From: a virus
Taxonomy: Duplodnaviria > Heunggongvirae > Uroviricota > Caudoviricetes
Virus record (IMG/VR): IMGVR_UViG_3300044557_000151
Location: 1-59,722 of that record
Strand: one strand, 5' to 3'
Length of the DNA: 59,722 nucleotides
How positions within the stretch are numbered: the stretch's first letter is position 1; every line of letters begins with the position of its first letter. Under the pieces are notes generated by a model. That model made no database searches. It was not told where the DNA came from and was given only the letters and a program-made list of their open reading frames with translations. The position numbers and the translations under genes are program-made. Positions 42,541 to 59,722 of the stretch are shown one piece after another.

Positions 42541-42617
42541 CCAAATAAACACATTAGTGTTTGACTACATTATATTAGTTTGCTACACTACAGTCAAACA
42601 CTAATGTGTTTATTTGG
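42541..42617 (+). promoter_or_regulatory. Sigma-A promoter nested in a 26-bp perfect inverted repeat
   Basis: Arms are 42541-42566 and 42592-42617. TTGACT (42561-66)-17 nt-TACACT lies upstream of the helicase SD GGAGGT. Confidence 0.75.
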
Positions 42618-42627
42618 AGGTATACAT

Positions 42628-44544
42628 TTGGAATATTCAGAACAACAACTTACCATTATCAATTCGAACGAGGATTGTATCCTTGTAAATGCCGCGGCTG
42701 GTTCTGGCAAGACGGCAACTTTTGTAGGCCGAGTCGTCAAACTGATCGAAGAGGACAATGTTTCCCCTACTGATATTTTGGCAATTACATTTAGTCGTGA
42801 CGCAGCAGACAACCTACGAAACCGCCTATCGCTTGCCCTTAGCGAATTGACTGCCGGAGACATTCGTATCACAACTTTCCACGCTTTTGCTCTATGGGCA
42901 ATGAAGCGAGCATTCCCTCAAGTCTACGCTGAACCTATGCGCTTAGTTGCTGACTGGTGGAAGTTCAAACAGGCAACTGATATTGTCGGTGTCCAGGACT
43001 ACTATCATCCTAACGGTATGGGACTCGGTATTCGCGCCGGCGAACTCTTATCCCACATCTCTCGTATGAAGTCGCACGGTGTCCTGACCTCTTCCGATCT
43101 GAGCCAACACCCCGAGCTTTCCTCAATCGCAATGTATGGGCCTGCATTTGATGTCTACAACGATCTAGCAACAAAAGCCCATTATTACGACTTTGACGAT
43201 ATCCTACTTCACTTCAAACACGCTCTTGAAGTTAACGATCAGTTTCAAGAGCGTATGAGTCAGTTATTCCCCTATATCATGGTCGATGAAGTTCAAGATA
43301 CTTCTATGATCAACTTAGACATCTTGCAACTTCTACAACCCAAGCATTTGTTTGCTGTCGGAGATTTCCGCCAAGGCATCTATGGGTTTATCAATGCCGA
43401 CATCAACAACATTTTGCATTTCGACAAGCACTTCCCTGATGCTAAATTCATCGACTTGTCTACAAACTACCGATCAACTCGCAACATCGTTGATTTCTCT
43501 AACCGTATTATCAAGGCTGCAAAGAATCCAGACTACGACAAATTTGCTCCAGCCAAGTCAAATAGCTCTCAGGATGGCTCCAGAGTTAAATTTACGGCCT
43601 ATGACAGCGTTGAAAATCAGTCCGAGGGTATTTGTACCCAGATAGAAGATGACGTCTCTGAGGGGGCAAAATATTGCGAATACGCTATCATTGTTCGAAC
43701 TAACTCTGACGTAGGATTATTTCAATCGCTATTAACACAAGAATCTATTCCTGTCAAGGTAAATTCAAAAGCTTCTTTCTTCGATAAGCGTTTTGTCTCC
43801 TGTCTTCTGGCATACATTCGCCTTGCAATTTCTAAGGATGACGATGATGCCTTTCGACAAGCAATCAACACTCCGAATCGATATATCTCAAATGCCTTCC
43901 AAGGAGATCTCGATGATTATGCCTACTCAAACGAAATGACCCTTTTCGATGCTGCACATGAAATGACTGGCAAGGTCCCAAAAGGTCTTAAATCATATCT
44001 CGACCTGATCGACAAACTACAAGAAGTTGATTCTGCCGCTGGAGTTCTTGATTTCGTTCAGCGTAAGACTCACCTATTCGATGAAATCAACAAGTCTGCA
44101 AAGTCTCCCGAACAAGCTGTCGATCAGATTTCTTCATTTAACGTACTGCGTCGCATCGCATCGAACCATAAGTCACCTGAATCGCTTATCAAACACGTTG
44201 AAGCTTCGACTGCAAATAACAAAGTTGACGAACGTGCCGATGGCGTATATCTAACAACTGCACACGGCTCAAAAGGACTCGAATATAAGCACGTGTTTGC
44301 TCCTAACTTCGATGAGTCCAACTACCCCCACTCTATGTCAGATGATCCAGAGGAAGAACGCCGCCTCTTCTATGTGATTGCATCTCGTGCGATGAAGTCA
44401 CTTGAGATCAGTTACTGTATTCAATCCGATTTGGCAGGAAAAATCACTATGCCTAGTCCGTTTCTGGTTGATATTAACAAGGAAGCTTCTCGATTGGGCA
44501 ATTCCGTCATGCGTGGCATCGCAAGTAAGTCAATGTACCTCTAA
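42628..44544 (+). CDS. UvrD/PcrA/Rep-family (SF1A) DNA helicase
   Basis: TTG start with SD GGAGGT. Motifs: AAAGSGKT, ITFSRDAA, TFHAF, VDEVQD, VGDFRQGIYGF, TNYRS, IIVRTN, TTAHGSKGLEY, EERRLFYVIASRA. Confidence 0.95.
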   Translation: MEYSEQQLTIINSNEDCILVNAAAGSGKTATFVGRVVKLIEEDNVSPTDILAITFSRDAADNLRNRLSLALSELTAGDIRITTFHAFALWAMKRAFPQVYAEPMRLVADWWKFKQATDIVGVQDYYHPNGMGLGIRAGELLSHISRMKSHGVLTSSDLSQHPELSSIAMYGPAFDVYNDLATKAHYYDFDDILLHFKHALEVNDQFQERMSQLFPYIMVDEVQDTSMINLDILQLLQPKHLFAVGDFRQGIYGFINADINNILHFDKHFPDAKFIDLSTNYRSTRNIVDFSNRIIKAAKNPDYDKFAPAKSNSSQDGSRVKFTAYDSVENQSEGICTQIEDDVSEGAKYCEYAIIVRTNSDVGLFQSLLTQESIPVKVNSKASFFDKRFVSCLLAYIRLAISKDDDDAFRQAINTPNRYISNAFQGDLDDYAYSNEMTLFDAAHEMTGKVPKGLKSYLDLIDKLQEVDSAAGVLDFVQRKTHLFDEINKSAKSPEQAVDQISSFNVLRRIASNHKSPESLIKHVEASTANNKVDERADGVYLTTAHGSKGLEYKHVFAPNFDESNYPHSMSDDPEEERRLFYVIASRAMKSLEISYCIQSDLAGKITMPSPFLVDINKEASRLGNSVMRGIASKSMYL

Positions 44545-44677
44545 ATCAACGTTTTGCGCCATTTTCGCCTATTATTGAGTATTTTGCTCAATTTTCGGCG
44601 AAAATGGCGCATTTTTGTCTGATTTTGATCTATTTTTAGCAATTTTCGTACCAAAATTGGAATCGATTAATGTTCCC

Positions 44678-44930
44678 GATGTGTACATCATGTGCATATC
44701 GGACACCTTCTAACCAATTTCAACCCAATCATCTCCCCTATCATCATTTCTGATGTGTACATGGGAGTTATTGCTAACGCATTTATATTTTTCATTTACC
44801 TTAGTCCCGAAATTACTCTCCAAAAAGTGCACTTCAAGTGCACTTTTCTGCCGGTAATTAACCAACTATTTACGTTGTACAAAAATGTAAGCGAAATTTT
44901 CAGTCAATAAAGTGCACTTCGAGTGCACTT
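44678..44930. repeat. Centromere/operator-like GTGCAC/GTGTAC palindromic repeats
   Basis: AAGTGCACTT-C-AAGTGCACTT (44825-44845), AAGTGCACTT-C-GAGTGCACTT (44910-44930), and ATGTGTACAT/ATGTGCATAT variants at 44679-44699 and 44753-44762, upstream of the ATPase gene. Confidence 0.65.
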
Positions 44931-44992
44931 TGCGTTGCGCAAACGACTAAAAAGTGGGATACTAAGACCATAAACGAATGGAGGGTTCAAAT

Positions 44993-46126
44993 ATGGTAGC
45001 AAAAAGCAGGAATCGCCGTGTAATGGGCGTTGATATTGGTAACGGGAAAGCAAAAATCTATACCGCCGTCGCAACAGGCGAAAAGGATGAGCAGGGAAAC
45101 GATATCTATAAAGGATATGCAATTCTAGCGCCATCCGTATATGCTCGTGAAGACGAAATTGGTAGCCAGGTAATTGAAACCGAAGCAACGAAGAAACAAG
45201 CAGAAAATCAGAAGCTGGATCGCTTCGTAATTGATGGTGTCCCATATTTGTGGGGACCTGACGTAGCGCGCCTAAACAGCACCATCGCATCATATGGTAT
45301 GGATAATCGATACACAAATAGCGCTTATCGCACAATGGTAAAACTAGCACTGGCAAAAGCTTTCTATTACTATAGTAAAGAACTTGGCTGGAAACCATCC
45401 GATCCTGTTCTGGTAATTACCGGTGTTCCTACCGAGGACATTGACGACAAATTTGGTAAATCTCAAACAACAAAAGTGCTTGAGGACTTATTCAAAGGAA
45501 CTGGAAGCGCAGAAGTAAATGGGCAAGAGGTATCATGGAATATCGATAAGATTGGTATTTTCCCTCAGCCTGAAGGGACCGCTGCCAAATACTGGATGGA
45601 TAACGGTGGATATGTAATTGAAGATGCTGAAGGGGATCACTCAGCATTAAATCATGCTGTTATCGACGTAGGTTCTGGCACAACTGATATTGACATTAAC
45701 GAAGGTGTCATCCGCGTAGCTCACGTAACTTTACGCCAAGGGTTCCATGATGTATATCAGGCAATTCGAAACGAAATCGCTCGTGTCGCTGGAATCCAGG
45801 ATGCAAGCTTCGCTACGGACGACCGTCTCCTTGAACTTCTGGAAGAGGGTAAATATGTGTACAGCGTCCCATCATACCCGAAACCTATTGTGTTTAAAGA
45901 CGCAATGGATGAAGCTGTTGATAATTTAGCAAGTGCCACAGCTCGGGCATTTGATGAAATTCAAAAGTCAAGCACTAATTTGCAACATATTTTTTTGACA
46001 GGCGGTCCGGCCGAACGTATCTTTGAACAATTCAAACAAACAATGCCACGGATCGAAAAAGAAGACGAGCATGAATTGTCAGATGTAATTGGATTCTATC
46101 GCATTGGAATGCAAGTTCCAGAATAG
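44993..46126 (+). CDS. parM: Actin-like plasmid partition ATPase (ParM/StbA/Alp type)
   Basis: Phosphate 1 motif VDIGNGKAK, connect motif PQPEGT, phosphate 2 motif IDVGSGTTD, adenosine motif LTGGPA. Start reassigned to ATG 44993 (SD GGAGG). Confidence 0.88.
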   Translation: MVAKSRNRRVMGVDIGNGKAKIYTAVATGEKDEQGNDIYKGYAILAPSVYAREDEIGSQVIETEATKKQAENQKLDRFVIDGVPYLWGPDVARLNSTIASYGMDNRYTNSAYRTMVKLALAKAFYYYSKELGWKPSDPVLVITGVPTEDIDDKFGKSQTTKVLEDLFKGTGSAEVNGQEVSWNIDKIGIFPQPEGTAAKYWMDNGGYVIEDAEGDHSALNHAVIDVGSGTTDIDINEGVIRVAHVTLRQGFHDVYQAIRNEIARVAGIQDASFATDDRLLELLEEGKYVYSVPSYPKPIVFKDAMDEAVDNLASATARAFDEIQKSSTNLQHIFLTGGPAERIFEQFKQTMPRIEKEDEHELSDVIGFYRIGMQVPE

Positions 46127-46138
46127 AGGTGATCGTCT

Positions 46139-46426
46139 ATGCCGCAGCATCGCAGCGGAAAAGGGTATCCACGTCAAGCCTTCGCACTTGTTGAGGGCAG
46201 AGACGATGATATCATTGAATTCATCGAAACAAACCCAGATGTACAAGAAATGGGCCAAGCAAAGTTTACGAGAAATTTGTATCGCACTTATATACAAGCA
46301 AAGGCAACTGGCGATATGGGTCTGTTTAAGAATATGGAATCAGTCAAGGCCATGCCAAAGCCAAAGAAGAAACCGAAAAAGAAGCTCGGGATCGGCCTTG
46401 GTGGGCAAGGTATGTTTAAGAGATAG
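46139..46426 (+). CDS. Probable ParR-like ribbon-helix-helix adaptor
   Basis: 95 aa directly after the ATPase, with pattern AFALVEGRDDDIIEFIE...AKFTRNLYRTYI and a Lys-rich tail. Confidence 0.6.
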   Translation: MPQHRSGKGYPRQAFALVEGRDDDIIEFIETNPDVQEMGQAKFTRNLYRTYIQAKATGDMGLFKNMESVKAMPKPKKKPKKKLGIGLGGQGMFKR

Positions 46427-46430
46427 ATCA

Positions 46431-46460
46431 AACAGTCACTCGAAAGGGTGGCTGTTTTTG
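46431..46460 (+). terminator. Intrinsic terminator
   Basis: AACAGTCACT-CGAAA-GGGTGGCTGTT followed by TTT. Confidence 0.7.
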
Positions 46461-46509
46461 TGTACATAAATAGGATATGATAGATATAACTATGATCGGA
46501 GGGGTATTC

Positions 46510-46965
46510 ATGAGCGAATCGAAAGGTGCTAGATACAAAGGAGTAACATTCCGACTCGACAAACAAGCCGATCGTGAAGTAATCGAATGGCTTGAAGATC
46601 TCACGAAAGGTAAAAATGGCAACAAATACGCCCGGGGTGCGATGAGGCTCGCCATGGCGATGGCTAAGACAGGTCTAGTCACCACAGATCAAATATACGA
46701 AGCGGGGGAGCGAACCGATGCTGCACGCGTGTTTGACTACCTTGTCGATAGCAAATATATTGTCATCGGCGAGAAGTCTGATGGTGGTGTCCGGATCAAT
46801 ATGATGGACCCCGACAAAGAACCATGGCCTCCTAAAGCCCCAGATCGTCCTGCAAGCGAATTGTTGGCAGACATTGCTGCCGATAAGAAGGCTGCTGAAG
46901 ATAAACGTATAGCTGAAGAAGCCGCTAAAATTGAGAAGGGCGAGATCCCAGGCATAGACTTCTAG
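46510..46965 (+). CDS. Second RHH-like DNA-binding protein
   Basis: Start ATG 46510 (SD GGAGG). Pattern GVTFRLDKQADREVIEWLE...KYARGAMRLAM, with a Pro/Ala/Lys-rich C-terminal tail. Confidence 0.55.
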   Translation: MSESKGARYKGVTFRLDKQADREVIEWLEDLTKGKNGNKYARGAMRLAMAMAKTGLVTTDQIYEAGERTDAARVFDYLVDSKYIVIGEKSDGGVRINMMDPDKEPWPPKAPDRPASELLADIAADKKAAEDKRIAEEAAKIEKGEIPGIDF

Positions 46966-48065
46966 GCGTATTGCTTGTTGTAGTAGTTAGAGTATTCGAT
47001 ATTACGTGTGTATGCAGACTCAGCCAGGGCGTAATCAAAGAAGTTGCCAAGAGTCTTTCGGATAAAGGCTTCAGGCTTACGAATCTTGCGTCCATATTGT
47101 TGGAATCCACTGAAGCATTCACGCACACAGAAGATGACCTTATCACGGAGTTGATCTTGCATGATAGTGTTCGTTTCGATGCAGGAGTCTTCAGAGGTGA
47201 TAGGGTATTTTGGCTGAATAGAGTTATTCAAATCGACCTTGTAACGAGATACAGCAGTGGATTTAGTCGTATAGATTAGATCAATAACCTGGTGAAGCAT
47301 CTTGTAATTATGACCGATGAGAGACTTCAATTCGTCAGCAAGTCCCATTGGCAAGCCTTTAACTGATGATGATTGCATATAGTTTTCAATCAAGAGACGG
47401 TTAGAGTCAGAATTCTCTTGGATTTTCATACCCTTGAAATCAAAAGCGGTATATGTATTTCCGTTTTTGACCTGTTCGTTAGATGATTCAGAAGTATGAG
47501 AGTTATCTACAATGGATGCAGATGCAGGAGAATCAGCCTGGGGGAGTGCAACTGGTGTATCTGGTGATAAGTTCTTAGAGTCAAGTACACTTGTAGGCAA
47601 ATTTTGCTTACCGTCTTGAGCGCGAAAAAGAACTAAACGTGGATATAAGTCGAATTGGTAAGCAGATTTTGCTTTCGAAGCTTGAGCAGTGAAGTAAGAT
47701 TTGGGCAACAGATACTTAATCTTAGTTGAACGCTTAGCTGTGATTGGATCAGAAGGTAAAGGCATAGCATCACCAAGGAAGATACGACATGCACCTTTGC
47801 CAATTTGCTCATAGGAAATCAAGTGTACTGCACGAAGATCACGCATTACACTGGATGCGGTCCGCAAGGAACAGTGAAGAGATTCAGCCATTTCAGCTTG
47901 AGTGAACCACACGTAAGGGATATCGTTTTCCATGATCCCGTTTACCTTTGATAGTTCGATTCGATTGCTGATGAGGCCGTAGGCAATCATATGATTAGGC
48001 TTGAGAGATTGGAAAGTCTTGGATTTGAGTAGAGACATTGGAACTTTAATGTATGGAGTAGTCAT
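46962..48065 (-). CDS. repA: Plasmid replication initiator, RepA_N-like
   Basis: YIKVPMSLL....FQSL...HMIAYGLISNRIELS..NG.....PYVWFTQAEMAE.LHCS fits the RepA_N pattern. Likely start is ATG 48065 (track start 48107). Confidence 0.7.
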   Translation of the reverse strand: MTTPYIKVPMSLLKSKTFQSLKPNHMIAYGLISNRIELSKVNGIMENDIPYVWFTQAEMAESLHCSLRTASSVMRDLRAVHLISYEQIGKGACRIFLGDAMPLPSDPITAKRSTKIKYLLPKSYFTAQASKAKSAYQFDLYPRLVLFRAQDGKQNLPTSVLDSKNLSPDTPVALPQADSPASASIVDNSHTSESSNEQVKNGNTYTAFDFKGMKIQENSDSNRLLIENYMQSSSVKGLPMGLADELKSLIGHNYKMLHQVIDLIYTTKSTAVSRYKVDLNNSIQPKYPITSEDSCIETNTIMQDQLRDKVIFCVRECFSGFQQYGRKIRKPEAFIRKTLGNFFDYALAESAYTRNIEYSNYYNKQYA

Positions 48066-48205
48066 AGTATGTGTCTTCCTTCCGGGAAGGCAATCAAAAA
48101 GGCTCACAAGAGATCTCCAGAAAATAAACTTCTGAATGTCCTAACTTGCGAGCCTTTAACCTGATTCATCGTTATTTTACAACTGTAAAAAGTTGCTCAT
48201 AAGAC

Positions 48206-49844: not shown

Positions 49845-49973
49845 TCAAATTAAGGTGTTGACAACTGATAGCAACACTGGTAAGGTTGTCACATACCAAC
49901 GCAACACGGTTTCAAAATTAAATCAAATTAAGGTGTTGACAACTGATAGCAACACTGGTAAGGTTGTCACATA
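49845..49973 (+). repeat. Two identical 51-bp promoter units (early P2 and P3)
   Basis: 49845-49895 equals 49923-49973. Each contains TTGACA-17 nt-TAAGGT with TG extension. Confidence 0.85.
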
Positions 49974-51148: not shown

Positions 51149-51373
51149 ATGACACACAACTATCGGATTATGTACCACAGATATTACGACGAACGCGGCG
51201 AAAACCGTGTTTTAAAAGACATGGTGGCCTATACGCTTTTCGATGCTATCGACGAATGGAAAACGACGTCAAGTGATTTTCTGATGGCTGACAAAATCTG
51301 GCTTGAGGTTCAACATGCCGACGACTTGAGTTGTGGCGAATGGCAAACGCTAGACATGCGATACGACGGCTAA
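51149..51373 (+). CDS. Hypothetical early protein
   Basis: 74 aa, SD GGGG. Confidence 0.65.
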   Translation: MTHNYRIMYHRYYDERGENRVLKDMVAYTLFDAIDEWKTTSSDFLMADKIWLEVQHADDLSCGEWQTLDMRYDG

Positions 51374-51398
51374 AGAATTTTTACTAGGGGGTAGCACT

Positions 51399-51713
51399 AT
51401 GCTTAAAATCAAGAAATTTTCCGCACTTGACTATTTTGATGCTGACGACTTGACAACTGACGTAAGTACCGCCATTGCCATCTTTCCTGACGGTTCAATG
51501 GTTAATGGGTGTTTTTGTTGTGGTATACGTGGCAATGACCACAACTTGGTTATTGGGTGTCTAGATTGCGATTGGCAACAAGCGCATGACGTGTACGGTG
51601 TTGTTCGCCTTGTACCGGAAACCGGTGTCGCTTTAATTGACACTAAACAAACACTATCGTGTCAACAAGAACTTTTGGTTAAGCGCGGCGGCTATTCAGT
51701 TGAGCGTTACTAG
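51399..51713 (+). CDS. Hypothetical early protein (Cys-rich)
   Basis: 104 aa, SD GGGGGT, contains FPDG...GCFCCGIRGNDH. Confidence 0.7.
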   Translation: MLKIKKFSALDYFDADDLTTDVSTAIAIFPDGSMVNGCFCCGIRGNDHNLVIGCLDCDWQQAHDVYGVVRLVPETGVALIDTKQTLSCQQELLVKRGGYSVERY

Positions 51714-51722
51714 TGAGTTATT

Positions 51723-51779
51723 GACGGGCTATGGCGTGTGTCGCATTGCGACATAGGGTGTTCGATTCACCCGCCCGCC
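51723..51779 (+). ncRNA. Miniature tRNA-like element 1
   Basis: Acceptor-like GACGGGC/GCCCGCC, T-arm GGGTG-TTCGATT-CACCC, middle hairpin TGTGTCGC-ATT-GCGACATA. There is no D-arm and no CCA. Confidence 0.6.
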
Positions 51780-51832
51780 TTATTGAGCGCCACTATTAGG
51801 CGTATCAAGAAATTTTAAGGAGGTCTTTCAAA

Positions 51833-52303
51833 ATGAAAGAACAAAACATGACTTTAGATGAAAAACTGGCATACGTGGCAAACTATCCCGTTCAGTCAAA
51901 ACTATGGGACTATGCCACGGCTGACTTTTCAAAAGTTGAAGAAACTTTTCTGGGTTCTGCTATGGATGGGGTGGACTTGTTTGTAGAGACCGGCGTATCG
52001 CTTGACGCGCAAGGTGTTACCACCATGTATGGGCACGACAAACTTATTAAAAACGCCTTGTATGTATGCGATACGCAAGCGTATATCGACAAGAAGAACG
52101 TGTTAGGCATGACGTACAGTGAATTAACCAATGATGCCGTTATTGCAGGGCCTTTTTCGTCAATTGAAGAAATTTTAACAGACCTTGCTTGCCGTTATCA
52201 AGAAAGCGAGGGTGACGACTTATGGGGCGGTGACGACTGGCGTCATGACTTATCTATGAAACAATACGACGCTGATTTTCCAGAAACGGTAGCGGCCGAC
52301 TAG
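51833..52303 (+). CDS. Hypothetical acidic early protein
   Basis: 156 aa, SD AAGGAGGT. Confidence 0.75.
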   Translation: MKEQNMTLDEKLAYVANYPVQSKLWDYATADFSKVEETFLGSAMDGVDLFVETGVSLDAQGVTTMYGHDKLIKNALYVCDTQAYIDKKNVLGMTYSELTNDAVIAGPFSSIEEILTDLACRYQESEGDDLWGGDDWRHDLSMKQYDADFPETVAAD

Positions 52304-52391
52304 TTTTTACATTAGGCACACGATGAATTTTTCCATGGCGTGCCTTGTTGTGATAAATAGTCACGAAAACAAAGAAAATGGGGGCTTCATT

Positions 52392-52544
52392 ATGGATAAC
52401 GTAGTATACGAAAACATTGCAATCGACGGGGCGAAAGTACCGTTTAACAAGATAACGTCATGGCTTGCGCCGTATATCGAGCGTGGGGAATACGTGGTAT
52501 CTGGCGGGTTTGTGAAGTATCTTAATGCGCAAGGTGTCGAATAA
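52392..52544 (+). CDS. Hypothetical early protein (50 aa)
   Basis: ATG 52392 after GGGGG; the track start at 52323 has no SD. Confidence 0.5.
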   Translation: MDNVVYENIAIDGAKVPFNKITSWLAPYIERGEYVVSGGFVKYLNAQGVE

Positions 52545-52668
52545 ACAATCGCATTGGATAAGGATTCGCAATCATGGCAATACGCGTTTATCGTTCGTGA
52601 GTTGTCATTCTATTGTCCCAAAATCGGCCGTGAGCAAGTGCCCGGTATCGACTTCTAAAGAACTTTTA

Positions 52669-52722
52669 CCCCGCAATGGGTGTCACTTGACACGATACGG
52701 CTGTTCGATTCAGTCGGCGGGG
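52669..52722 (+). ncRNA. Miniature tRNA-like element 2
   Basis: CCCCGC/GCGGGG, T-arm CGGCTG-TTCGATT-CAGTCG, middle hairpin GTGTCA-CT-TGACAC. Confidence 0.6.
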
Positions 52723-52767
52723 ATATGCACTATTAATAATTTAAAGAATTTTTAGGAGGTATTCATT

Positions 52768-53085
52768 ATGTTTACAGCAATTAAGCAATGCGAATTATCC
52801 ATGACGGCAATTAACCGTGTCGTGCGTGGCGTCAATGCCAACGTAGAAGAACTGGACATATATTTTGATCGTAGCGGGCGTATTGTCGGAACAATCGGCT
52901 TTGGTAACTGGTACGAAAAGGGAGGCAAAACGTGGTACCCAGAAGGCGCTGTACTAGTGGCACGCGGAAGAAAATTTTCACCCATTGGCAAAGTTGACTT
53001 TGAGGAAGCAAGTGACGGTATCGACTACGCGATGGAACAACTAGAGTTTGCACAAAAGTACAGCGATTATGATTTTGAATATTAG
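52768..53085 (+). CDS. Hypothetical early protein
   Basis: 105 aa, SD AGGAGGT. Confidence 0.75.
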   Translation: MFTAIKQCELSMTAINRVVRGVNANVEELDIYFDRSGRIVGTIGFGNWYEKGGKTWYPEGAVLVARGRKFSPIGKVDFEEASDGIDYAMEQLEFAQKYSDYDFEY

Positions 53086-53116
53086 TGTAGGGAAGAATTT
53101 TTAGGAGGTTATTATC

Positions 53117-53389
53117 ATGAATAAACGTGAATTTAATAAGGCTTTAGCATTGGAATTGTCATTCTTGAAAGTACCACGCAATGCAATTTATGTACAGAAT
53201 GCCGGCAAGTTAGAAGGTGTTTCGGTACGCAAAGAAAATTTAGTCAACGCGTCAATTAATCGCAACGTTGTGACAATCGAGTGGACTACTCCGCAAGGTG
53301 TAAAGCGCGATGTTATCGACTGGAATAAGGCGTTCACACCGAACATGATCGCACTAACGGCGGATAAGTTTGTTGAAGTGTTGCGTTAA
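53117..53389 (+). CDS. Hypothetical basic early protein
   Basis: 90 aa, SD AGGAGGT. Confidence 0.75.
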   Translation: MNKREFNKALALELSFLKVPRNAIYVQNAGKLEGVSVRKENLVNASINRNVVTIEWTTPQGVKRDVIDWNKAFTPNMIALTADKFVEVLR

Positions 53390-53398
53390 AGAAAGTTT

Positions 53399-53453
53399 TG
53401 CCACGCTGGACACGTCATATCATGGCGGCCGCTGTTCGAGCCAACGGGTGGCA
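53399..53453 (+). ncRNA. Miniature tRNA-like element 3
   Basis: TGCCAC/GTGGCA, T-arm CCGCTG-TTCGAGC-CAACGG (one mismatch), middle hairpin GTCAT-ATC-ATGGC. Confidence 0.55.
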
Positions 53454-53497
53454 GTTAGCACTAGTAATAATATAAAGAAAATTTGGAGGTATACGCA

Positions 53498-53749
53498 ATG
53501 GCGACACAATCAATTCAGTTATACAACGCACAAGGTCAAGAAATTTTAGGTGGTACTGATACCATGGTATTCACGTCACGATATACGCCTTATGTTAGCG
53601 TGGCGGCGTTCCTGAAAGGTGGCTGGATCGAACGGGCTGTTAGTGTAGCGCGTAATATCAAACACCAACAACCGGTTCGGGTGAAAGTTATCACTAGTCC
53701 AGATTATGATACCGCGCATGATTCAGTATTCTATGAAGCCACAATCTAA
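53498..53749 (+). CDS. Hypothetical early protein
   Basis: ATG 53498 after SD GGAGGT, 83 aa. Confidence 0.7.
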   Translation: MATQSIQLYNAQGQEILGGTDTMVFTSRYTPYVSVAAFLKGGWIERAVSVARNIKHQQPVRVKVITSPDYDTAHDSVFYEATI

Positions 53750-53772
53750 AGAAATTTTGGAGGTATTACATT

Positions 53773-54213
53773 ATGAAAGCACATTTGGACATTGAATTTG
53801 GCAAGGACACTTACGAATCCGGCTGGCAAGATATTTTATGGACTGATTACGATACACCTATCACTGGTGAGTATTACGACAACCCCGTTATCGAAGCGTT
53901 AGCAAGTATTGTGGACTTTCCGTTCATCTCACACTATTACGATCATGACGCCGCCCGTGAGCAGGCCGCAAAAGAATTTTTTGATCGTGTTCTGGAAAAT
54001 TGTGTACTTGATGAAGATGGAGACAACGACCCGTACGTTGATGCAACAGTGTACGTCAACAAGAAGCAAGATGATTATACCGGACAATTCAAGTATCGCA
54101 AGCAAGGCACGACACGTGCCGTGCCGAGCTATTACGTCAATGTTAAAATTCGCTTCACTGTTGAACAAGATGTTACTAGCAACATTGTAAAGAACTTTTT
54201 GCCCGTCGCATAG
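53773..54213 (+). CDS. Hypothetical acidic early protein
   Basis: 146 aa, SD GGAGGT. Confidence 0.75.
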   Translation: MKAHLDIEFGKDTYESGWQDILWTDYDTPITGEYYDNPVIEALASIVDFPFISHYYDHDAAREQAAKEFFDRVLENCVLDEDGDNDPYVDATVYVNKKQDDYTGQFKYRKQGTTRAVPSYYVNVKIRFTVEQDVTSNIVKNFLPVA

Positions 54214-54319
54214 TCGCTAAAATAAATATTTTATCTTTAGTAGCAGTATCTGGCGATTAAGAAATTAACCGCTGGACTAGTACCACTAATTAAACAAACA
54301 CTATATGGAGGTTATTATC

Positions 54320-54778
54320 ATGCAAGAACGTACAAAATTGGAACATCTTGACCACACTTTGGGTTATTACAAGTACTCAAATGACGCAAAGGCGGTCAAG
54401 ATTGCGGAGGCCGGGCTTGAGGCCGTCAAGCTGATGCAATTAAAGTTAAAACGGCAAGAAATTTTAACCGAACATGTAGCAGGAACTTCACCTGACGCAT
54501 GGCCGTTAAATATCTACAATCGCGAACTGGAAACACAAGAGTTTGACGTTGAAGATAACGATAACCAATATCATTGCGTGCGCAAAATTTACACGTATTA
54601 CAAAGAAGAAAACGTTGTGGGGTCTAACGGTGAATGGACAAAACGCAATGGCGAGATCGTGGCGCAAGTTGCAGAACAAAATTGGTTCGCAGGTTATGGT
54701 GTGCAAGTTGAGGGTAAAGGTTACGTGTTCTTATGGAATGAAAACAAACGCGAAGACAATAAGGTAGTTGATGATTAG
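54320..54778 (+). CDS. Hypothetical early protein
   Basis: ATG 54320 after SD GGAGGT, 152 aa. Confidence 0.72.
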   Translation: MQERTKLEHLDHTLGYYKYSNDAKAVKIAEAGLEAVKLMQLKLKRQEILTEHVAGTSPDAWPLNIYNRELETQEFDVEDNDNQYHCVRKIYTYYKEENVVGSNGEWTKRNGEIVAQVAEQNWFAGYGVQVEGKGYVFLWNENKREDNKVVDD

Positions 54779-54864
54779 ATGCTGTTACTATCTGGCGGGC
54801 AAAGAATTTTTTGACCGCTGGTCGTGAGTACCTAATACATATCAATAAATGGAGGTTGTGAACT

Positions 54865-55101
54865 ATGCAAGAAATTATCAAAGAACTACACAACGGCGGT
54901 CGGCTTTGGGTTTTGTATCCAGAAGGCGAGTTTGGCTTTGCCGATGAAAAGAATGGCATGGCCGGATTATTTGATCGCTGGGGCAAAGCGTTGCATGAAG
55001 TGCGAACAAGTACAGTTACCAAGTTAATCGAGCAAGGGTATATCGAACGGCCTAGTTACCAATGCCAACGCGACTATGAAGCAAAGAATTTGTTGAAGTA
55101 A
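54865..55101 (+). CDS. Hypothetical early protein
   Basis: 78 aa, SD GGAGGT. Confidence 0.7.
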   Translation: MQEIIKELHNGGRLWVLYPEGEFGFADEKNGMAGLFDRWGKALHEVRTSTVTKLIEQGYIERPSYQCQRDYEAKNLLK

Positions 55102-55153
55102 AAATGACTGTTTTATGTAGCAAACAAATAAAGAAATTTTGGAGGAAACAAAC

Positions 55154-55756
55154 ATGACACCACAAAAATTAATGGAAGCATTCATCAATGACACAAAGAA
55201 GACACACACTTACGACGTTCACCCAACGGGTTTAATTTGTGGCAAGAATACAATTGGGGGCGGGGCGCATGGGCTTGTCGCCTTGTATGGAGATCAAAGC
55301 GGAGAAACATTCACCGGCGAACGTAACGCCTATCAGAAGCTGTTTGAGCAAGAAGATGCCTTGACGACGCCAATGGTCAAGATTGAGTATTCAGAATGTA
55401 AAGAAATTATTGCCGTTATCAAAGACTGGTCGAAAAATTGGAAGTCGCTTGGGCTGGAAAATGCCCGGAAGTTTCCGGTTCGGCTAGAAAATATTGATGG
55501 CAAACTATCCGTTAACCCACAACGGGTAATAGATAACGACGAGATGAAACACTTCGAGGCGCAGACCGTAGATAATGACGTAAGTATCTATTTTCGGGCA
55601 GATTTATTGAAAAAGACGCTTGAAACAGTAAAGCGCGGTAGCTCAATCACGATGAACGTTGACAATAATTGCAACGTCAAACGCCCGCTACTACGCCCCG
55701 CAGTATTTAAGTCTGACAACTGGGCGGCCTTGATCGCGCCATTGCGAGTTTGGTAA
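55154..55756 (+). CDS. Protein with DNA sliding clamp (DnaN) C-terminal-like region
   Basis: ATG 55154 (SD GGAGG). The C-terminus SIYFRADLLKKTLE...ITMNV...RPAVFKSDNWAALIAPLRV resembles the last domain of the beta clamp. Confidence 0.45.
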   Translation: MTPQKLMEAFINDTKKTHTYDVHPTGLICGKNTIGGGAHGLVALYGDQSGETFTGERNAYQKLFEQEDALTTPMVKIEYSECKEIIAVIKDWSKNWKSLGLENARKFPVRLENIDGKLSVNPQRVIDNDEMKHFEAQTVDNDVSIYFRADLLKKTLETVKRGSSITMNVDNNCNVKRPLLRPAVFKSDNWAALIAPLRVW

Positions 55757-55846
55757 CAAAGAAATTTTTGATATACGGGTGTGGCCACCATTAATGGTGG
55801 CTAGTCTTGTGTACCAAAACTAATAAATTTTTGAGGAGAAAACATT

Positions 55847-56275
55847 ATGACATTTACAATTAGAGATAGTTTTACTACAACTATGAATGATGCTGGGCAA
55901 TTGGTCGTAACAATGGACGAGATCGGAATTACGCGTGATGCGGCGATTGCCATTGACGAAAGTTTCCAGTCTTGGGTGGAGCAAGAAGTTTTCCCGCTTA
56001 TCCCCGGCGATGATGAACAAGTGATTTTAGATGACGTGTTAGAAGATTCAACCTATACAAAGGTCGATCAATGGAATGATGAAGACCCAAGCGAAGACAA
56101 TCTGTTATGGCAGAACACTGTTCGTGACAACCCGAAAATGCTGGTCGATGCAATCTGTGTAACGGCTGAAAAATGGTACAACTTACCGGACGATGTGCAA
56201 GTATATGCGTTACCACGAGAATTTTTCTGGGATTGCTGGAATGCTGAAATGGAAGCAAGCCTTATCGAAGATTAG
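55847..56275 (+). CDS. Hypothetical highly acidic early protein
   Basis: 142 aa, SD GAGGAG, rich in Asp/Glu and Trp. Confidence 0.75.
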   Translation: MTFTIRDSFTTTMNDAGQLVVTMDEIGITRDAAIAIDESFQSWVEQEVFPLIPGDDEQVILDDVLEDSTYTKVDQWNDEDPSEDNLLWQNTVRDNPKMLVDAICVTAEKWYNLPDDVQVYALPREFFWDCWNAEMEASLIED

Positions 56276-56362
56276 TTAGTTGCGGTTGTGGTCGCGAGTT
56301 TAAAGAAATTCACGGCCATTCTGGAGCCAATTAAAAATATTTGAAATATGGAGGTAATTAAC

Positions 56363-56719
56363 ATGACCGAATTTATTACAGTATCGAAGCGTGAGGAATT
56401 TTTGGAAGGTTTACGGAGGGCCGCAAGGATTGTTGAAATTGAAACAAGTAAGCCAGCAGATCAATGGGAAGTTGATGACAGTAACATGCTAACCGCAGTT
56501 GAATTTTACGATGGATATAGCGCAGTACAATTTCGCATGTGGCCAGCAACAGTGGCAACTGAAGCAAAAATCCAGATTATCGGTGAATATGATGGTGGCG
56601 ACGACGAGCGAGGTTCTATCTGGTTAGATATGAACGGTTCAACGAGCGAAAAACTAGAGCTCGCGGCGCTCAAGTATGTGTTGCTTAATAAAGAATATTT
56701 AATTGGCGATGAAGCATAG
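56363..56719 (+). CDS. Hypothetical acidic early protein
   Basis: ATG 56363 after SD GGAGGT, 118 aa. Confidence 0.72.
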   Translation: MTEFITVSKREEFLEGLRRAARIVEIETSKPADQWEVDDSNMLTAVEFYDGYSAVQFRMWPATVATEAKIQIIGEYDGGDDERGSIWLDMNGSTSEKLELAALKYVLLNKEYLIGDEA

Positions 56720-56764
56720 ATAAAACACGTCTTTTAGAAAGTCAATCAAAAGGAGAAATTAATC

Positions 56765-56980
56765 ATGAAAAATCAAATTATCGTTACAAATGCAATGGGC
56801 GAACGCGAAGAAACTTTAGGCACATTTGATACACCGCAGCAGGCATGGGACACGGCGCAAGAAGATTGGAATAAGCGCGGTCTAGATATTTCGTACTGGA
56901 GCTATTATTTCTACAACGCCCGGACGAAAGAAGAAATTGATATGGTGTCGCTGATTGATGAAGGCGTTGTTGCCGCATAA
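56765..56980 (+). CDS. Hypothetical early protein
   Basis: 71 aa, SD AAGGAG. Confidence 0.72.
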   Translation: MKNQIIVTNAMGEREETLGTFDTPQQAWDTAQEDWNKRGLDISYWSYYFYNARTKEEIDMVSLIDEGVVAA

Positions 56981-56994
56981 AGGAGAAATTAATC

Positions 56995-57225
56995 ATGAAA
57001 ACATTCAAATTTGCTGGTGTCACTGATATGGAAAATGCTTGGCTGAACGTAACTATCAAGTCGGTTGCAAAAATTTACGTTCGAGGTCTAATTACGATGA
57101 GTGAAGCGCGCTACGAGATCACACGCAGGATTCAAGAACGGTTTGGTTGGTCCGAAATCACCTTTAATACAGTTACTAATATCACTGATAACGACATTAA
57201 GATGGTAGGACAACGGGTAGCTTAG
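56995..57225 (+). CDS. Hypothetical early protein
   Basis: 76 aa. It shares a 23-bp leader (AAAGGAGAAATTAATCATGAAAA) with the preceding gene. Confidence 0.72.
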   Translation: MKTFKFAGVTDMENAWLNVTIKSVAKIYVRGLITMSEARYEITRRIQERFGWSEITFNTVTNITDNDIKMVGQRVA

Positions 57226-57308
57226 TAGTTGGCTGATTCTGGTAGGCAAGAAATTGTCTGCTAGACTTGAACCAACTATTATGAGAACACAAAACGGAGG
57301 AAATTATC

Positions 57309-57653
57309 ATGAGTGAACAACAATATATTATGGACTATCGTGCAATCTGGGAAGCGCGCGACTTACAACGTTGGTTTGATAGTGTCACAGATGCTGGCAT
57401 GAATGTGTATGTACGTGCTCAACAATTCCATAAGCCAGAAGGATATGGCGCTGGAGAATTTATTCAATACAGACTTGAATTTACATTCGGTGAGGAAAAT
57501 TTTGACGATCTGGAAGAAGATAATTTCGACTTCTGGTTTAGTCATGAAGATACTGGATCAGACTTCTGGCGCTTCCTTGCGGTTGCTGAAGATCAGGGTG
57601 AGAAAAACGACTTAGTGAAGTACGATGACCAACTGTTATTAGATTTTGATTAG
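57309..57653 (+). CDS. Hypothetical highly acidic early protein
   Basis: 114 aa, SD GGAGG, contains EENFDDLEEDNFDFWFSHEDTGSDFW. Confidence 0.75.
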   Translation: MSEQQYIMDYRAIWEARDLQRWFDSVTDAGMNVYVRAQQFHKPEGYGAGEFIQYRLEFTFGEENFDDLEEDNFDFWFSHEDTGSDFWRFLAVAEDQGEKNDLVKYDDQLLLDFD

Positions 57654-57732
57654 TTAGCTGATTCTGATCGGTAAGAAATTATCGGTCGGGCTTGAGCCAA
57701 CTAATAGCAGTCAAAAATAGGAGGAAATTATC

Positions 57733-57978
57733 ATGAATACAACAGTTATTGAAAAGTCAGTCGCAGTTACTAAATTCAGTCGAAAGGCGTTTAAAGAACG
57801 TTTTGGTGGTGAGTATGACGATAACGAATGGTTTGCCACTTCTGATCTTGAAGAAATTTTCTACATGGATGGCGACTTGGAAACCGTAATGCAGGAATTG
57901 GTCGATGAGGGACGTAACAGTTACGACTACATGATCGGGTTGGTAGATGGCGCGACGTATTTCGCAAGTCGCTTGTAG
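57733..57978 (+). CDS. Hypothetical acidic early protein
   Basis: 81 aa, SD AGGAGG. Confidence 0.72.
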   Translation: MNTTVIEKSVAVTKFSRKAFKERFGGEYDDNEWFATSDLEEIFYMDGDLETVMQELVDEGRNSYDYMIGLVDGATYFASRL

Positions 57979-58007
57979 AAGAAGAATTTTAGCAGGAGGG
58001 TATAGAA

Positions 58008-58226
58008 ATGAAGAAATTTTCAAAGGTAGTACTATTATTAATCGTTTTGGTAGTAATTGTTGGAACTTTCCACTTTCAAATTGGCAATGCAATTCAACAA
58101 TGTGGTGGTTGGATATATTGGCACGCAGGAATGCACAAAACTGGTTCAATGATAATCGCAAGTGGTGTTTCACTTATGGATTTTGAAAATATGATTACGC
58201 CGGTTGCAGAATTGGTATTCAAATAA
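58008..58226 (+). CDS. Small membrane/exported protein
   Basis: 72 aa with N-terminal hydrophobic helix VVLLLIVLVVIVG, SD GGAGG. Confidence 0.6.
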   Translation: MKKFSKVVLLLIVLVVIVGTFHFQIGNAIQQCGGWIYWHAGMHKTGSMIIASGVSLMDFENMITPVAELVFK

Positions 58227-58238
58227 GGAGGGTATACC

Positions 58239-58508
58239 ATGTTTCCATTTAACGAAGATGTAAATGTTGCGCTTGGTAAAGAATTTTTGAATGAGGAGAA
58301 CGCTGATGCGTTTAACGTGGAGTTTTACGAACAGATTAATCGGCAATTTGATGCAGTTGATTTTGTCGATAACTGGGGCGGAAGCGTCAAAGTTGAAGTG
58401 TGGGGAGAACTTATCCCTGTCACGTTTAGTGTGGAACGTGAAGATGACCCCGACGGCGTATACAACTTTAGTGACATTATCGTCAGCCTTGATCTGGTTG
58501 CGGCATAA
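58239..58508 (+). CDS. Hypothetical acidic early protein
   Basis: 89 aa, SD AAGGAGG. Confidence 0.72.
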   Translation: MFPFNEDVNVALGKEFLNEENADAFNVEFYEQINRQFDAVDFVDNWGGSVKVEVWGELIPVTFSVEREDDPDGVYNFSDIIVSLDLVAA

Positions 58509-58537
58509 AAAATAATTTTTAACAGGAGGATATTATT

Positions 58538-58720
58538 ATGTTTAATATTGGAGACATTGTAACAATTCATGACGTGGAGCAACAATTTGATGGCTTAAAC
58601 GCCCGTGTGATCGACTATGACCGTGATATGGAACGAACACAGGTAGATATTTTCGATCCAATGTATGAGAGCGATGATTCAACCACAGAATTTAACGACG
58701 ACGAACTGGAGTTGGCATAA
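58538..58720 (+). CDS. Hypothetical acidic protein, possible KOW/SH3-like fold
   Basis: 60 aa, SD GGAGG. The start FNIGDIVTI...G..ARVI is KOW-like. Confidence 0.6.
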   Translation: MFNIGDIVTIHDVEQQFDGLNARVIDYDRDMERTQVDIFDPMYESDDSTTEFNDDELELA

Positions 58721-58722
58721 TT

Positions 58723-58926
58723 ATGAAACAAACAACAAAGAAATTTCGGTTAGCAACTTTTGAGGAAGCGGCGCGGGAGGCAGAGGCTACAATTCAACTA
58801 ATTCAGGATAGTACATATTCTGATAATACCAATCTAGAAATTAACCCGTACCGTCAGCAGGCCGAAGATGCCTTACTTATTGCTTGGCACGCACTTGAGA
58901 ATGCGGCGCAGTACGAAAAGCACTAG
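58723..58926 (+). CDS. Hypothetical protein
   Basis: 67 aa, coupled to the preceding stop. Confidence 0.55.
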   Translation: MKQTTKKFRLATFEEAAREAEATIQLIQDSTYSDNTNLEINPYRQQAEDALLIAWHALENAAQYEKH

Positions 58927-58976
58927 ATAAAATCAGGCTTTCAACAAATTAAAGAATTTTTTCGTTCATTGACAGT

Positions 58977-59005
58977 TGAACAATTGTACAGCATATTGTA
59001 CAATA
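58977..59005 (+). promoter_or_regulatory. TA operon promoter with TGTACA operator pair
   Basis: TTGAAC-17 nt-TACAAT, with TGTACA at 58985 and 58997 (12-bp spacing, as in yefM-yoeB operators). Confidence 0.75.
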
Positions 59006-59028
59006 TATCTGAAAGGGTGGTGATTGCT

Positions 59029-59298
59029 ATGGATGCAGTCAGTTATAGTAACTTTCGGCAGAACCTTAAAAGTTACATGCAGCGATTGAAAGATGATGCA
59101 GACACTGTAATCGTTACAGCAAAAGACCCAGAAGACAATATGGTTATCATGAACCAACGTGATTATGATTCGATGCAGGAAACCATGCGGATCATGAGCA
59201 ATCCATATCTAGTTGATAAGATTCGTCGTGGGCAGAAAGAATTTGAAGCTGGTAAAGGAACCATTCATGATCTAGTCGAGGTTCCAGAAGATGATTAG
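59029..59298 (+). CDS. yefM: YefM/Phd-family antitoxin
   Basis: MDAVSYSNFRQNLKSYM...VIVT...NMVIM...DYDSMQETM..MSNP; ATG 59029. Confidence 0.92.
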   Translation: MDAVSYSNFRQNLKSYMQRLKDDADTVIVTAKDPEDNMVIMNQRDYDSMQETMRIMSNPYLVDKIRRGQKEFEAGKGTIHDLVEVPEDD

Positions 59299-59566
59299 GT
59301 CATGGACGGAAGACGCCTGGTCGGATTATGAAGACTGGATTGCACTTCGCAGATGGAAGACAGTCAAAAGAATTAATAAGCTGATCGACGATATTAACCG
59401 AACCCCGTTTGAGGGTCTGGGAAAGCCAGAGCCACTGAAACATGAATTTGCGGGTTTGTGGTCACGGCGTATCACAAAAGAGCATCGCCTGATCTATGAC
59501 GTGGCGAGCATAAACAAGAAACAAACAATTCGGCTATATTCGTGTCGAGATCATTATGAATCGTAG
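59291..59566 (+). CDS. yoeB: YoeB/Txe-family mRNA interferase toxin
   Basis: WTEDAW.DY..W...KRINKLI.DI.R.PFEGLGKPEPLKHE.AGLWSRRITKEHRLIY; overlaps the antitoxin stop. Confidence 0.93.
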   Translation: MIRSWTEDAWSDYEDWIALRRWKTVKRINKLIDDINRTPFEGLGKPEPLKHEFAGLWSRRITKEHRLIYDVASINKKQTIRLYSCRDHYES

Positions 59567-59626
59567 TTGGAGCGGGCAGAATTTTTCTACCCGTTTTATT
59601 GTGGAGAAATTTTGGAGGGCGTGGTT

Positions 59627-59722
59627 ATGAAAAAGATTGAATTTAAACTTACTGGAATGTACGCATGGGGCGTTAACGAATACTCACTATTCGTTGATGG
59701 TGTATTTGTTAAAAGCTGGACA
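59627..59722 (+). CDS. Partial hypothetical ORF (runs off the window)
   Basis: ATG after GGAGG; MKKIEFKLTGMYAWGVNEY... stays open to the window end. Confidence 0.5.
   Translation, partial: MKKIEFKLTGMYAWGVNEYSLFVDGVFVKSWT

Follow-up and report, generated by a model that had tools for sequence, protein, structure and literature searches.

The motif and its domain

The DNA considered here, referred to as the window, comprises positions 1 to 59,722 of the virus record IMGVR_UViG_3300044557_000151 and forms the first 59.7 kb of a 123.7-kb genome (labelled G000) of a large temperate-type phage. From about 51.4 kb onwards lies a block of ~32 small + strand genes, called by a Shine-Dalgarno (SD) sequence plus a start codon, within and between which the short sequence AAGAAWTT recurs in a single orientation. 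Almost all of the block proteins are ORFans when compared with PHROGs. An independent public contig that covers the window in part is 100% identical to it, and its own gene caller arrived at the same genes. The motif is real, strongly non-random, specific to one strand and one domain and under selection at the nucleotide level, and it is conserved in related phages whilst the genes of the block are not.

An earlier note on this DNA had listed 19 copies of the longer form AAGAAWTTT and claimed that they occur on the + strand only, in three contexts: 5' of SD sequences, within open reading frames (ORFs) where they encode KKF, EEIL, QEIL or KEF, and as the AA-GAAA-UU apex of hairpins. All 19 exist at the coordinates given (51373 to 58952), 19 out of 19 are on the + strand, and the three contexts are described correctly. 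The window holds 22 matches to AAGAAWTTT against 4.2±2.1 (maximum 12) in dinucleotide-preserving shuffles, with only three of them (one +, two -) in its first 51 kb. By k-mer counting the true core is the 8-mer AAGAAWTT, which is present as 36 + and no - copies within 51.4-61.9 kb (counted over 50.7-62.0 kb, 11.3 kb) and as 15 copies in the other 112 kb of the genome, placing the block ~30-fold above expectation. The + strand of 50.7-62.0 kb carries AAGAAATT 23 times and AAGAATTT 13 times, the - strand neither. The edges of the domain are sharp, with 2-4 copies per kb at 51-61 kb and none in the flanking kilobases, and the cluster runs 2.2 kb past the end of the window to ~61.9 kb:

51373-59722, + strand: motif domain inside the window, with 28 of the 36 copies; extends to ~61944 of the genome

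The top block-enriched 8-mers relative to the sense strand of the remaining genome are GAATTTTT, AAGAAATT, AGAAATTT, AGAATTTT and AAGAATTT, with P from 1e-16 to 1e-24. The extended consensus is R-AAGAAWTT-W-T (~10-11 nt), and a logo of 145 copies pooled from this phage and its relatives has information only at -1 (a purine), at the eight core positions and at +8/+9 (T or A, then T). The core is also strict, in that hardly any variant with a single substitution is enriched in the block of G000, and the GAA at its centre is essentially invariant both here and in the related phage G001, which is described below.

Enrichment is confined to the domain and not equal across the genome, and AAGAAWTTT has no copy at all between 61.3 and 123.7 kb even though all genes there are also on the + strand. 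A polar DNA motif of the Chi or KOPS/SRS type was rejected for this reason. NusG TTNTTT pause sites, UP elements and CodY or ComK boxes presumably do not apply, as we take none of them to fit so strict a core. Searches of Rfam gave nothing at gathering scores and at E≤5 nothing relevant, a single snoRNA match being at the level of chance; ARAGORN reported no tRNA, and a literature search for the literal motif returned primers and incidental matches only.

Placement relative to genes

Seven copies, where 1.0 would be expected, are placed immediately 5' of GGAGG and start 23-26 nt ahead of an ATG; the core lies 1-3 nt 5' of the GGAGG and thus outside the SD itself. Several of these SD-adjoining copies overlap or abut the TAA of the upstream gene, such that the intercistronic gap consists of stop, motif, SD and spacer, and in all six copies start 0-8 nt past a stop codon. 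The copies at ribosome-binding sites are:

51373-51380, + strand: overlaps the TAA of the upstream gene; 18 nt before the ATG at 51399
51807-51814, + strand: directly 5' of AAGGAGG; gene at 51833
52744-52751, + strand: AAAGAATTTTTAGGAGG; gene at 52768
53093-53100, + strand: AAGAATTTTTAGGAGG; gene at 53117
53749-53756, + strand: overlaps the upstream TAA; AAAGAAATTTTGGAGG; gene at 53773
55131-55138, + strand: AAAGAAATTTTGGAGG; gene at 55154
57982-57989, + strand: 4 nt past the upstream stop, 5' of AGGAGG; gene at 58008

A further nine copies, against 2.3 expected, start 54-70 nt ahead of an ATG, with five of these in long intergenic hairpins, and eight fall within the first 15 codons, at +3 to +43 (4.1 expected). 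The other 12 comprise 11 that lie deeper in ORFs and one that adjoins a promoter:

58952-59004, + strand: copy immediately upstream of a σA-type promoter (TTGACA at 58969, TACAAT ending at 59004) of yefM/yoeB

Selection on the nucleotide sequence inside ORFs

The ORFs of the G000 block contain 19 copies of AAGAAWTT, compared with 8.2±2.1 in synonymous shuffles within genes (maximum 17 in 1000), 6.8 when synonymous codons are shuffled with pooled usage and 2.0±1.4 when codon order is shuffled. Relative to expectation the excess is found both in frame 0 (AAG AAW TTx, 4 vs 0.44) and in frame 1 (xAA GAA WTT, 15 vs 1.5), and it persists beyond codon 15, where 11 copies stand against 1.7 after shuffling of codon order and 4.7 after synonymous shuffling. 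As controls, the - strand structural genes of the same genome have 7 copies where 7.1 are expected and its other + strand genes 3 where 8.7 are expected. In G001, whose genes were likewise called by SD plus start codon, the ORFs hold 28 copies against 19.8 in synonymous (P=0.002) and 5.8 in codon-order shuffles; the excess over codon order extends to all three frames (6 vs 1.1, 18 vs 4.3 and 4 vs 0.5), and the 23 copies past codon 15 are still above the shuffles.

Chance or composition is ruled out by the dinucleotide, synonymous and codon-order shuffles together with the within-genome controls, and a common peptide motif by the excess in frames that encode different peptides. The enrichment therefore survives the codon-preserving shuffles in which a product of coding alone would have vanished, and as the controls show no excess it is the nucleotide word that is under selection, shaping both codon choice and the order of amino acids. 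Such nucleotide-level signals can bias the protein sequence of small phage genes, here towards [K/E/Q]-E-[F/I]. The in-ORF copies within the window include:

51411-51418, + strand: codon 5, frame 0, KKF
52167-52174, + strand: codon 112 of 156, frame 1, EEIL
53538-53545, + strand: codon 14, frame 1, QEIL
53972-53979, + strand: codon 67 of 146, frame 1, KEFF
54456-54463, + strand: codon 46 of 152, frame 1, QEIL
54869-54876, + strand: codon 2, frame 1, QEII
55084-55091, + strand: codon 74 of 78, frame 0, KNLL
55401-55408, + strand: codon 83 of 200, frame 1, KEII
56931-56938, + strand: codon 56 of 71, frame 1, EEID
57851-57858, + strand: codon 40 of 81, frame 1, EEIF
58011-58018, + strand: codon 2, frame 0, KKFS
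58279-58286, + strand: codon 14, frame 1, KEFL; followed by GAGGAG and an out-of-frame ATG at 58306
58738-58745, + strand: codon 6, frame 0, KKFR
59237-59244, + strand: inside yefM, codon 70 of 89, frame 1, KEFE

The gene at 58239-58508 also contains, in another frame, an alternative 69-aa ORF (58306-58515) that is preceded by the motif, GAGGAG and ATG; this may be either an overlapping gene or a coincidence.

With seven copies at a fixed distance 5' of strong SDs, eight in the first 15 codons and the G000 copies relatively unpaired (see below), it could be argued that the motif is an A/U-rich translation-initiation enhancer or standby site which keeps starts unstructured, the in-ORF copies being by-products of A-rich early codons or codon bias. 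It would seem very unlikely that this is its role, as a requirement for A/U-rich sequence would tolerate variants and single-base variants are not enriched in G000, the copies past codon 15 (11 in G000 and 23 in G001) exceed the shuffles, five copies sit in hairpins ~53 nt upstream of starts, and genes with strong SDs elsewhere in the genome do without the motif. Contiguous pairing with the 3' tail of 16S rRNA is presumably impossible too, given that UUUU(A) separates AGAAA from GGAGG.

Hairpins that present the motif

Five of the copies upstream of start codons are carried by intergenic hairpins:

54232-54290, + strand: hpA, AA-GAAA-UU apex, motif at 54259; 53 nt before the next ATG
54779-54836, + strand: hpB, AAAGAAUUUUUU apex, motif at 54802; 55 nt before the next ATG
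56276-56334, + strand: hpD, motif at 56303; 52 nt before the next ATG; folding z = -2.6
57226-57280, + strand: hpE, 12-bp inner stem, GAAA tetraloop closed by A-U pairs, 7-bp outer stem; motif at 57248; z = -4.4
57651-57705, + strand: hpF, homologous to hpE with compensatory stem changes; motif at 57673

These hairpins can be aligned as a family with 15-20 paired positions each, in which 78% of cells are paired compared with 23-46% in slid-partner controls; in seven pairs both partners have been substituted, and the two closing A-U pairs are invariant. In four of the five the apex is AA-GAAA-UU (or AAAGAAUUUU), with GAAA as a tetraloop upon closing A-U pairs, and in the best fold of hpD half of the motif is within the upper stem. 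Three of the five fold well beyond shuffles (z from -2.6 to -4.4). The stems are rich in G·U pairs, which on the other strand would be A·C, and the fold therefore belongs to the + sense strand, either as transcript or as + single-stranded DNA. The earlier note had left open whether the motif is a mark on mRNA or a site in DNA; the five + sense hairpins, with their compensatory and G·U changes and with the motif invariant at or near the apex, favour RNA. Copies in G000 are in general more unpaired than composition-matched 8-mers (0.62 vs 0.55, p=0.009).

The hairpins are found at only 5 of ~32 gene junctions. An array of integron attC sites was considered, as a recombinase-fold gene does adjoin the block, and was rejected on the grounds that the apex is conserved and the base varies, and that so few junctions have a hairpin.

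One further copy stands next to a strong structure of a different kind:

55759-55803, + strand: copy 3 nt past a stop codon, with a strong hairpin (55766-55819) 9 nt later

The hairpin at 55766-55819 has a predicted energy of -27 kcal/mol (z = -4.2) and a 9-bp GC-rich core at 55782-55803, without a U-tract. It is reminiscent of the sae operon of Staphylococcus aureus, in which, as outlined in PMC5449607, a downstream structure is reported to guide cleavage by RNase Y.

Hairpins resembling the T-arm of tRNA (GGGTGTTCGATTCACCC, GGCTGTTCGATTCAGTC and CCGCTGTTCGAGCCAACGG) were noted in three consecutive spacers (51714-51800, 52660-52740 and 53390-53460), each surrounded by an acceptor-like stem and ~20-35 nt upstream of a motif or motif variant with its SD. 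Neither ARAGORN nor Rfam reports anything at these three spacers. A similar GTGGGTTCGATTCTCAC hairpin adjoins a motif hairpin in the related phage G007. They may represent the remains of tRNA genes, or signals for processing that resemble a tRNA.

Transcription and gene content of the block

The block lies between the origin region on one side and a pair of recombinase-fold genes on the other. An exact 42-bp promoter-plus-inverted-repeat unit, GGTGTTGACAACTGATAGCAACACTGGTAAGGTTGTCACATA, occurs only twice in the genome, on the + strand at 49854-49895 and 49932-49973 (78 bp apart), and has a -35-like TTGACA within a TGACAAC...GTTGTCA inverted repeat. The two units, which are probably tandem regulated promoters of the block, are ~1.4 kb upstream of the first motif copy and are followed by a ~600-nt leader without an ORF. 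Since the block has a single good internal σA promoter, that of yefM/yoeB, and no convincing terminator before the strong one at 63258-63288, it looks like one unit of ~12-13 kb. It is plausible that this unit is expressed early, which is an assumption here. No homologue of the YonO RNA polymerase was detected, an empty result that is not proof of absence.

Within the block there is a MazEF pair at 60813-61473, the MazF of which is confirmed by Pfam, and a YefM/YoeB-like pair at 59029-59566 was identified by eye. A plasmid-type maintenance set, comprising a RepA_N initiator, a UvrD helicase and an actin-like partition ATPase (ALP_N, ParM-type), is encoded at 42580-48107 of the window. Downstream of the block are replication genes for Pol III alpha, DnaB, RecD2 and a Sak4-like AAA_24 protein, and the - strand encodes a tape measure of 2722 aa and a tail protein of 3048 aa.

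Directly after the block, past the end of the window, two recombinase-fold genes stand in tandem. The first (65170-66231; L002:6170-7231) matches YopP of SPβ (E=7e-11) and not MrpR, and in its product the box II arginine is replaced by K. The second (66344-67606; L002:7344-8606) matches SPβ YopR, which is the master repressor MrpR (E=7e-8), and also the PHROG integrase family phrog_5830. Such a tandem suggests lysogeny control of the SPβ type in this lineage.

Conservation in related phages

No close relative was found when the block proteins, RepA and a flanking gene were used as queries, nor by scans of genome contigs for relatives, and blastn against GenBank phages gave no match. A more distant relative, G001, was found by scanning for the composite AAGAATTTTTAGGAGGT. 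It is a 127-kb phage with terminal repeats and ~30% GC, and is related to G000 genome-wide, the structural and replication proteins being 25-62% identical. Its cluster has 36 copies of AAGAAWTT on the + strand at 93.0-103.9 kb and two on the reverse strand, and its top block-enriched 8-mers are AAGAATTT and AAAGAATT, with P about 1e-24. The two genomes have a common order of RepA, block, YopP-like gene and replication genes, with no match between any of their block proteins. The idea that the repeats are polar DNA sites for ejection, also raised by the earlier note, gains nothing from this arrangement, as the block of G001 is at least 23 kb from either end of the record.

Three more cluster-bearing phages were found with the best-conserved shared protein as bait: G007 (122 kb, 30% GC), G008 (117 kb, 35% GC) and G009 (108 kb, 35.5% GC). 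In all three the copies are co-oriented in a cluster of 8-12 kb, the end of which is just upstream of a YopP-like gene, and none of these phages has a block protein in common with G000 except for a marginal MazF-like match in G008. The motif is therefore an old and conserved feature of the variable block in this lineage, independent of whichever genes reside there. The proposal of a dedicated, strand-specific recognition code in the earlier note is strengthened by this conservation in syntenic blocks with differing genes, as it is by the strictness of the motif and by nucleotide selection in all frames.

G005 and G006 are siblings of G001 that are ~89% identical to it in the block, and both carry the cluster. 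Across the three genomes 61-76% of motif 8-mers are identical, compared with 47% of background 8-mers; several motifs are unchanged where their flanks have changed, and there are also clear cases of gain and loss. At one place homology between the siblings resumes exactly at a motif copy, AAAGAAWTTTTAGGTAG (L029:4389 in G001, L035:4297 in G005 and L036:4511 in G006), after a replaced, non-homologous segment of ~1.4 kb (3.6 kb when G005 is compared), and another junction is on a motif variant. Together with the hyperplastic nature of a block in which lineages have no genes in common, such junctions raise the question of whether the motif is a recombination linker at cassette boundaries that would help small genes to be exchanged among co-infecting phages, with the in-ORF copies as scars of past joins. 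The PeSL elements of T4-type phages are mobile, repeated regulatory cassettes, and resemble the motif in that they are repeated sequences flanking ORFan genes in hyperplastic regions with gene turnover (PMC2839356, PMC4122927). They differ in being promoter-plus-stem-loop composites of tens of bp that are intergenic, whereas the motif is 8-11 nt, occurs in ORFs as well and comes without -35/-10 hexamers, in a block with almost no σA promoters or terminators. Breakpoints are overall no closer to the motif than random (9 of 38 within 30 nt vs 6.3 expected, P=0.17), 8-11 nt is very short for homologous exchange, and neither the excess at synonymous sites in ORFs nor the covarying hairpins would be explained. 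We thus consider it improbable that linking is what the motif is for, and a linker role can coexist with a regulatory one.

In every lineage the block ends just upstream of the conserved YopP-like gene, and in G000, G007 and G009 a homologue of MrpR/YopR is conserved next to it. Tyrosine recombinase monomers recognise asymmetric sites of 8-11 bp, which is the size of the motif. From this it can be proposed that the motif is an array of DNA sites bound by a YopP-like or MrpR-like protein that silences the block in lysogeny, as an expanded form of the system in SPβ. There MrpR, the master repressor, binds a repeated element, SPBRE, which as reconstructed from seven MrpR-bound promoters is a 17-21 bp inverted repeat (ATACA-A5-6-TATGTAT) present in about 10 copies 29-97 nt upstream of start codons (PMC10516654). 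Both are repeated elements in large temperate Firmicutes phages that encode YopP-like and MrpR-like proteins, yet SPBRE differs in sequence, symmetry, copy number and placement. Homology between the two was rejected, since the motif is an asymmetric 8-11-mer with 36 co-oriented copies, 19 of them in ORFs, 7 abutting SDs and 1 near a promoter. SPβ and an annotated Staphylococcus SPβ-like phage have recombinase-fold proteins but no AAGAAWTT cluster, and the promoters of the G000 block have an operator-like inverted repeat of their own. Binding to double-stranded DNA does not need a 36:0 co-orientation and leaves the G·U-dependent hairpins unexplained, and the recombinase-fold proteins are only 20-35% identical across lineages whilst the motif is unchanged. 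It is therefore unlikely that the motif is a DNA operator of this kind.

A possible mechanism and its reader

The reading that we put forward, tentatively and as a working proposal, is that AAGAAWTT is a cis signal on the sense transcripts of the block which is read by a sequence-specific factor and most likely marks them for endonucleolytic cutting. We infer from the sequences RNA as the molecule read, cleavage as the outcome and the identity of the enzyme. Cutting would be at the lone G (AAG/AAAUU, the stroke marking the cut) in exposed A/U-rich RNA, either by a host enzyme with an RNase Y-like or RNase E-like preference or by a conserved nuclease. Cuts at the stop/SD junctions and at the hairpin copies would split the polycistronic RNA into units, each with a 5' end a few nt before a strong SD, and cuts inside ORFs would give the whole gene class a short and coordinated lifetime. 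In Bacillus, an SD close to the 5' end is known to stabilise transcripts, as described for leaders derived from SP82.

As the word is unchanged across phages that differ in GC content (30-43%) and whose proteins are 20-60% identical, the reader is likelier to be a very conserved one, probably part of the core machinery of the host, than a fast-evolving DNA-binding protein of the phage. RNase Y, the principal endonuclease by which decay is initiated in Firmicutes, is one candidate, since it prefers to cut 3' of G, often between G and A, in GC-poor, weakly structured RNA (PMC4608709; bioRxiv 10.1101/2023.03.12.532304), and the copies in G000 have these features: G at -1, A at +1 and an A/U-rich, weakly structured context (AAG/AAWUU). 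A MazF of the phage was rejected as the reader for the family, because PF02452/PemK genes are found only in G000 and G008 of five cluster-bearing phages. The conserved proteins of unknown function were metabolic or had no informative match.

Several observations count against this proposal. The consensus of RNase Y is weak and delocalised over tens of nt, and in B. subtilis U and not A is preferred at -2/-3 (PMC4608709; bioRxiv 10.1101/2023.03.12.532304), so that a strict 8-mer with A at both positions would not be predicted from RNase Y alone; scans of the proteins found no conserved phage nuclease or RNA-binding protein that might take its place. The domain in G001 contains perfect σA promoters, and the equation of one operon with one domain holds for G000 and not for G001, where the copies are less closely linked to start codons and two thirds of them lie well inside ORFs. 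The difference in accessibility is not significant in G001 (p=0.12), and the excess of copies at hairpin apices (33 of 145 pooled vs ~16 expected) arises in part from the self-complementarity of an AA...UU word itself. Outside the block, avoidance of the motif amounts to a weak trend only (10 vs 15.5, P=0.05; 27 vs 34, P=0.08). The internal σA promoters of G001, along with the copies deep in ORFs, mean that the tag is tied to a class of genes or a region and not to one transcript or to initiation sites alone.

A reader that does not cut would also account for much of the pattern. The motif would then be the RNA site of a trans regulator that docks beside SDs, in hairpin loops and at the first codons and turns the gene class on or off as a whole, either a translational repressor or activator like RegA of T4, for which class-wide repression of early mRNAs has been reviewed (PMC3014915), or an antisense RNA with an AAWUUCUU seed. 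The motif is strict, ~10 nt and strand-specific, 24 of the 36 copies are between -70 and +45 of a start codon where the access of ribosomes could be controlled, and exposure in hairpin loops is a classic docking mode for proteins and antisense RNAs. Such a regulator seems to us rather unlikely: there is no conserved, recognisable candidate protein, no non-coding transcript with the anti-motif was found (copies of the latter outside the block are in ORFs, with the exception of the intergenic one at 40251), and initiation could not be blocked at the two thirds of G001 copies that are deep in ORFs.

The cutting of one class of phage mRNA at a short tag has relatives in well-studied systems. The target of T4 RegB is an 11-nt single-stranded element (PMC1702504), and through it the early class is inactivated together (PMC1702504, PMC3014915). 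The likeness is that of short (~11 nt) RNA elements at the ribosome-binding regions of one class of phage mRNA, a temporal class in T4. The RegB element has its GGAG core within the SD together with an A-rich tail, whereas AAGAAWTT is beside the SD and has many copies inside ORFs and hairpin loops, and the hosts here are Firmicutes, without the S1-dependent mechanism. No nuclease of the RegB kind was matched among the proteins scanned, RegB itself not having been searched for.

The five hairpins, and only they, also have features of RNase III sites, being intergenic, irregular, about two helical turns long and covarying. The early polycistronic mRNA of T7 is processed by RNase III at hairpins that are likewise intergenic, irregular and ~20 bp. 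In the early mRNA of the Bacillus phage SP82 there are RNase III sites (Panganiban & Whiteley 1983, as cited in PMC4838370), which are similar to the five-hairpin subclass in being irregular ~20-bp hairpins between small genes of one transcript. The G000 hairpins differ in that the apical AA-GAAA-UU is conserved and the stems vary, most copies of the motif are outside hairpins, and cleavage is predicted only. A cis tag on a class of phage transcripts is thus a kind of element with precedents; this instance and its anatomy are new.

In its broadest form, which we consider possible and hold a little more loosely than the cleavage proposal, a previously undescribed lineage of 108-129 kb Firmicutes phages that are distantly SPβ-like and RepA_N-encoding (in G000 also with a ParM-like protein) uses an 8-11 nt RNA "class tag", by which a conserved reader of host or phage origin would process, time or shield the variable block, and the tag reshapes the amino-acid sequences encoded there. 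The known examples of joint control of transcript classes (RegB and RegA in T4, RNase III sites in T7 and SP82) are drawn from a few model phages, and the motif offers a clean, testable handle on how accessory and anti-host genes are coordinated in large temperate Firmicutes phages. Should a host enzyme be the reader, its recognition sequence as defined by the motif would be unusually sharp, and a phage factor in that role would be a new regulator. In either case the motif is a simple marker by which such blocks, and this phage family, can be recognised in metagenomes.

Other features of the genome

The combination of RepA_N, ParM-type and UvrD proteins with the YefM/YoeB-like and MazEF pairs suggests a phage-plasmid lifestyle. 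Within the - strand late region there is a ~950-nt gap (39951-40908) without an ORF of at least 60 aa, and it is this gap that holds, at 40251, the sole intergenic copy of the reverse complement of the motif on the + strand. Finally, the genome carries many selfish nucleases, with a gene for a LAGLIDADG-type homing endonuclease in the structural module (window 37939-38754) and two HNH/homing-endonuclease-like genes at 104643-105776 and 121057-122502 of the genome.

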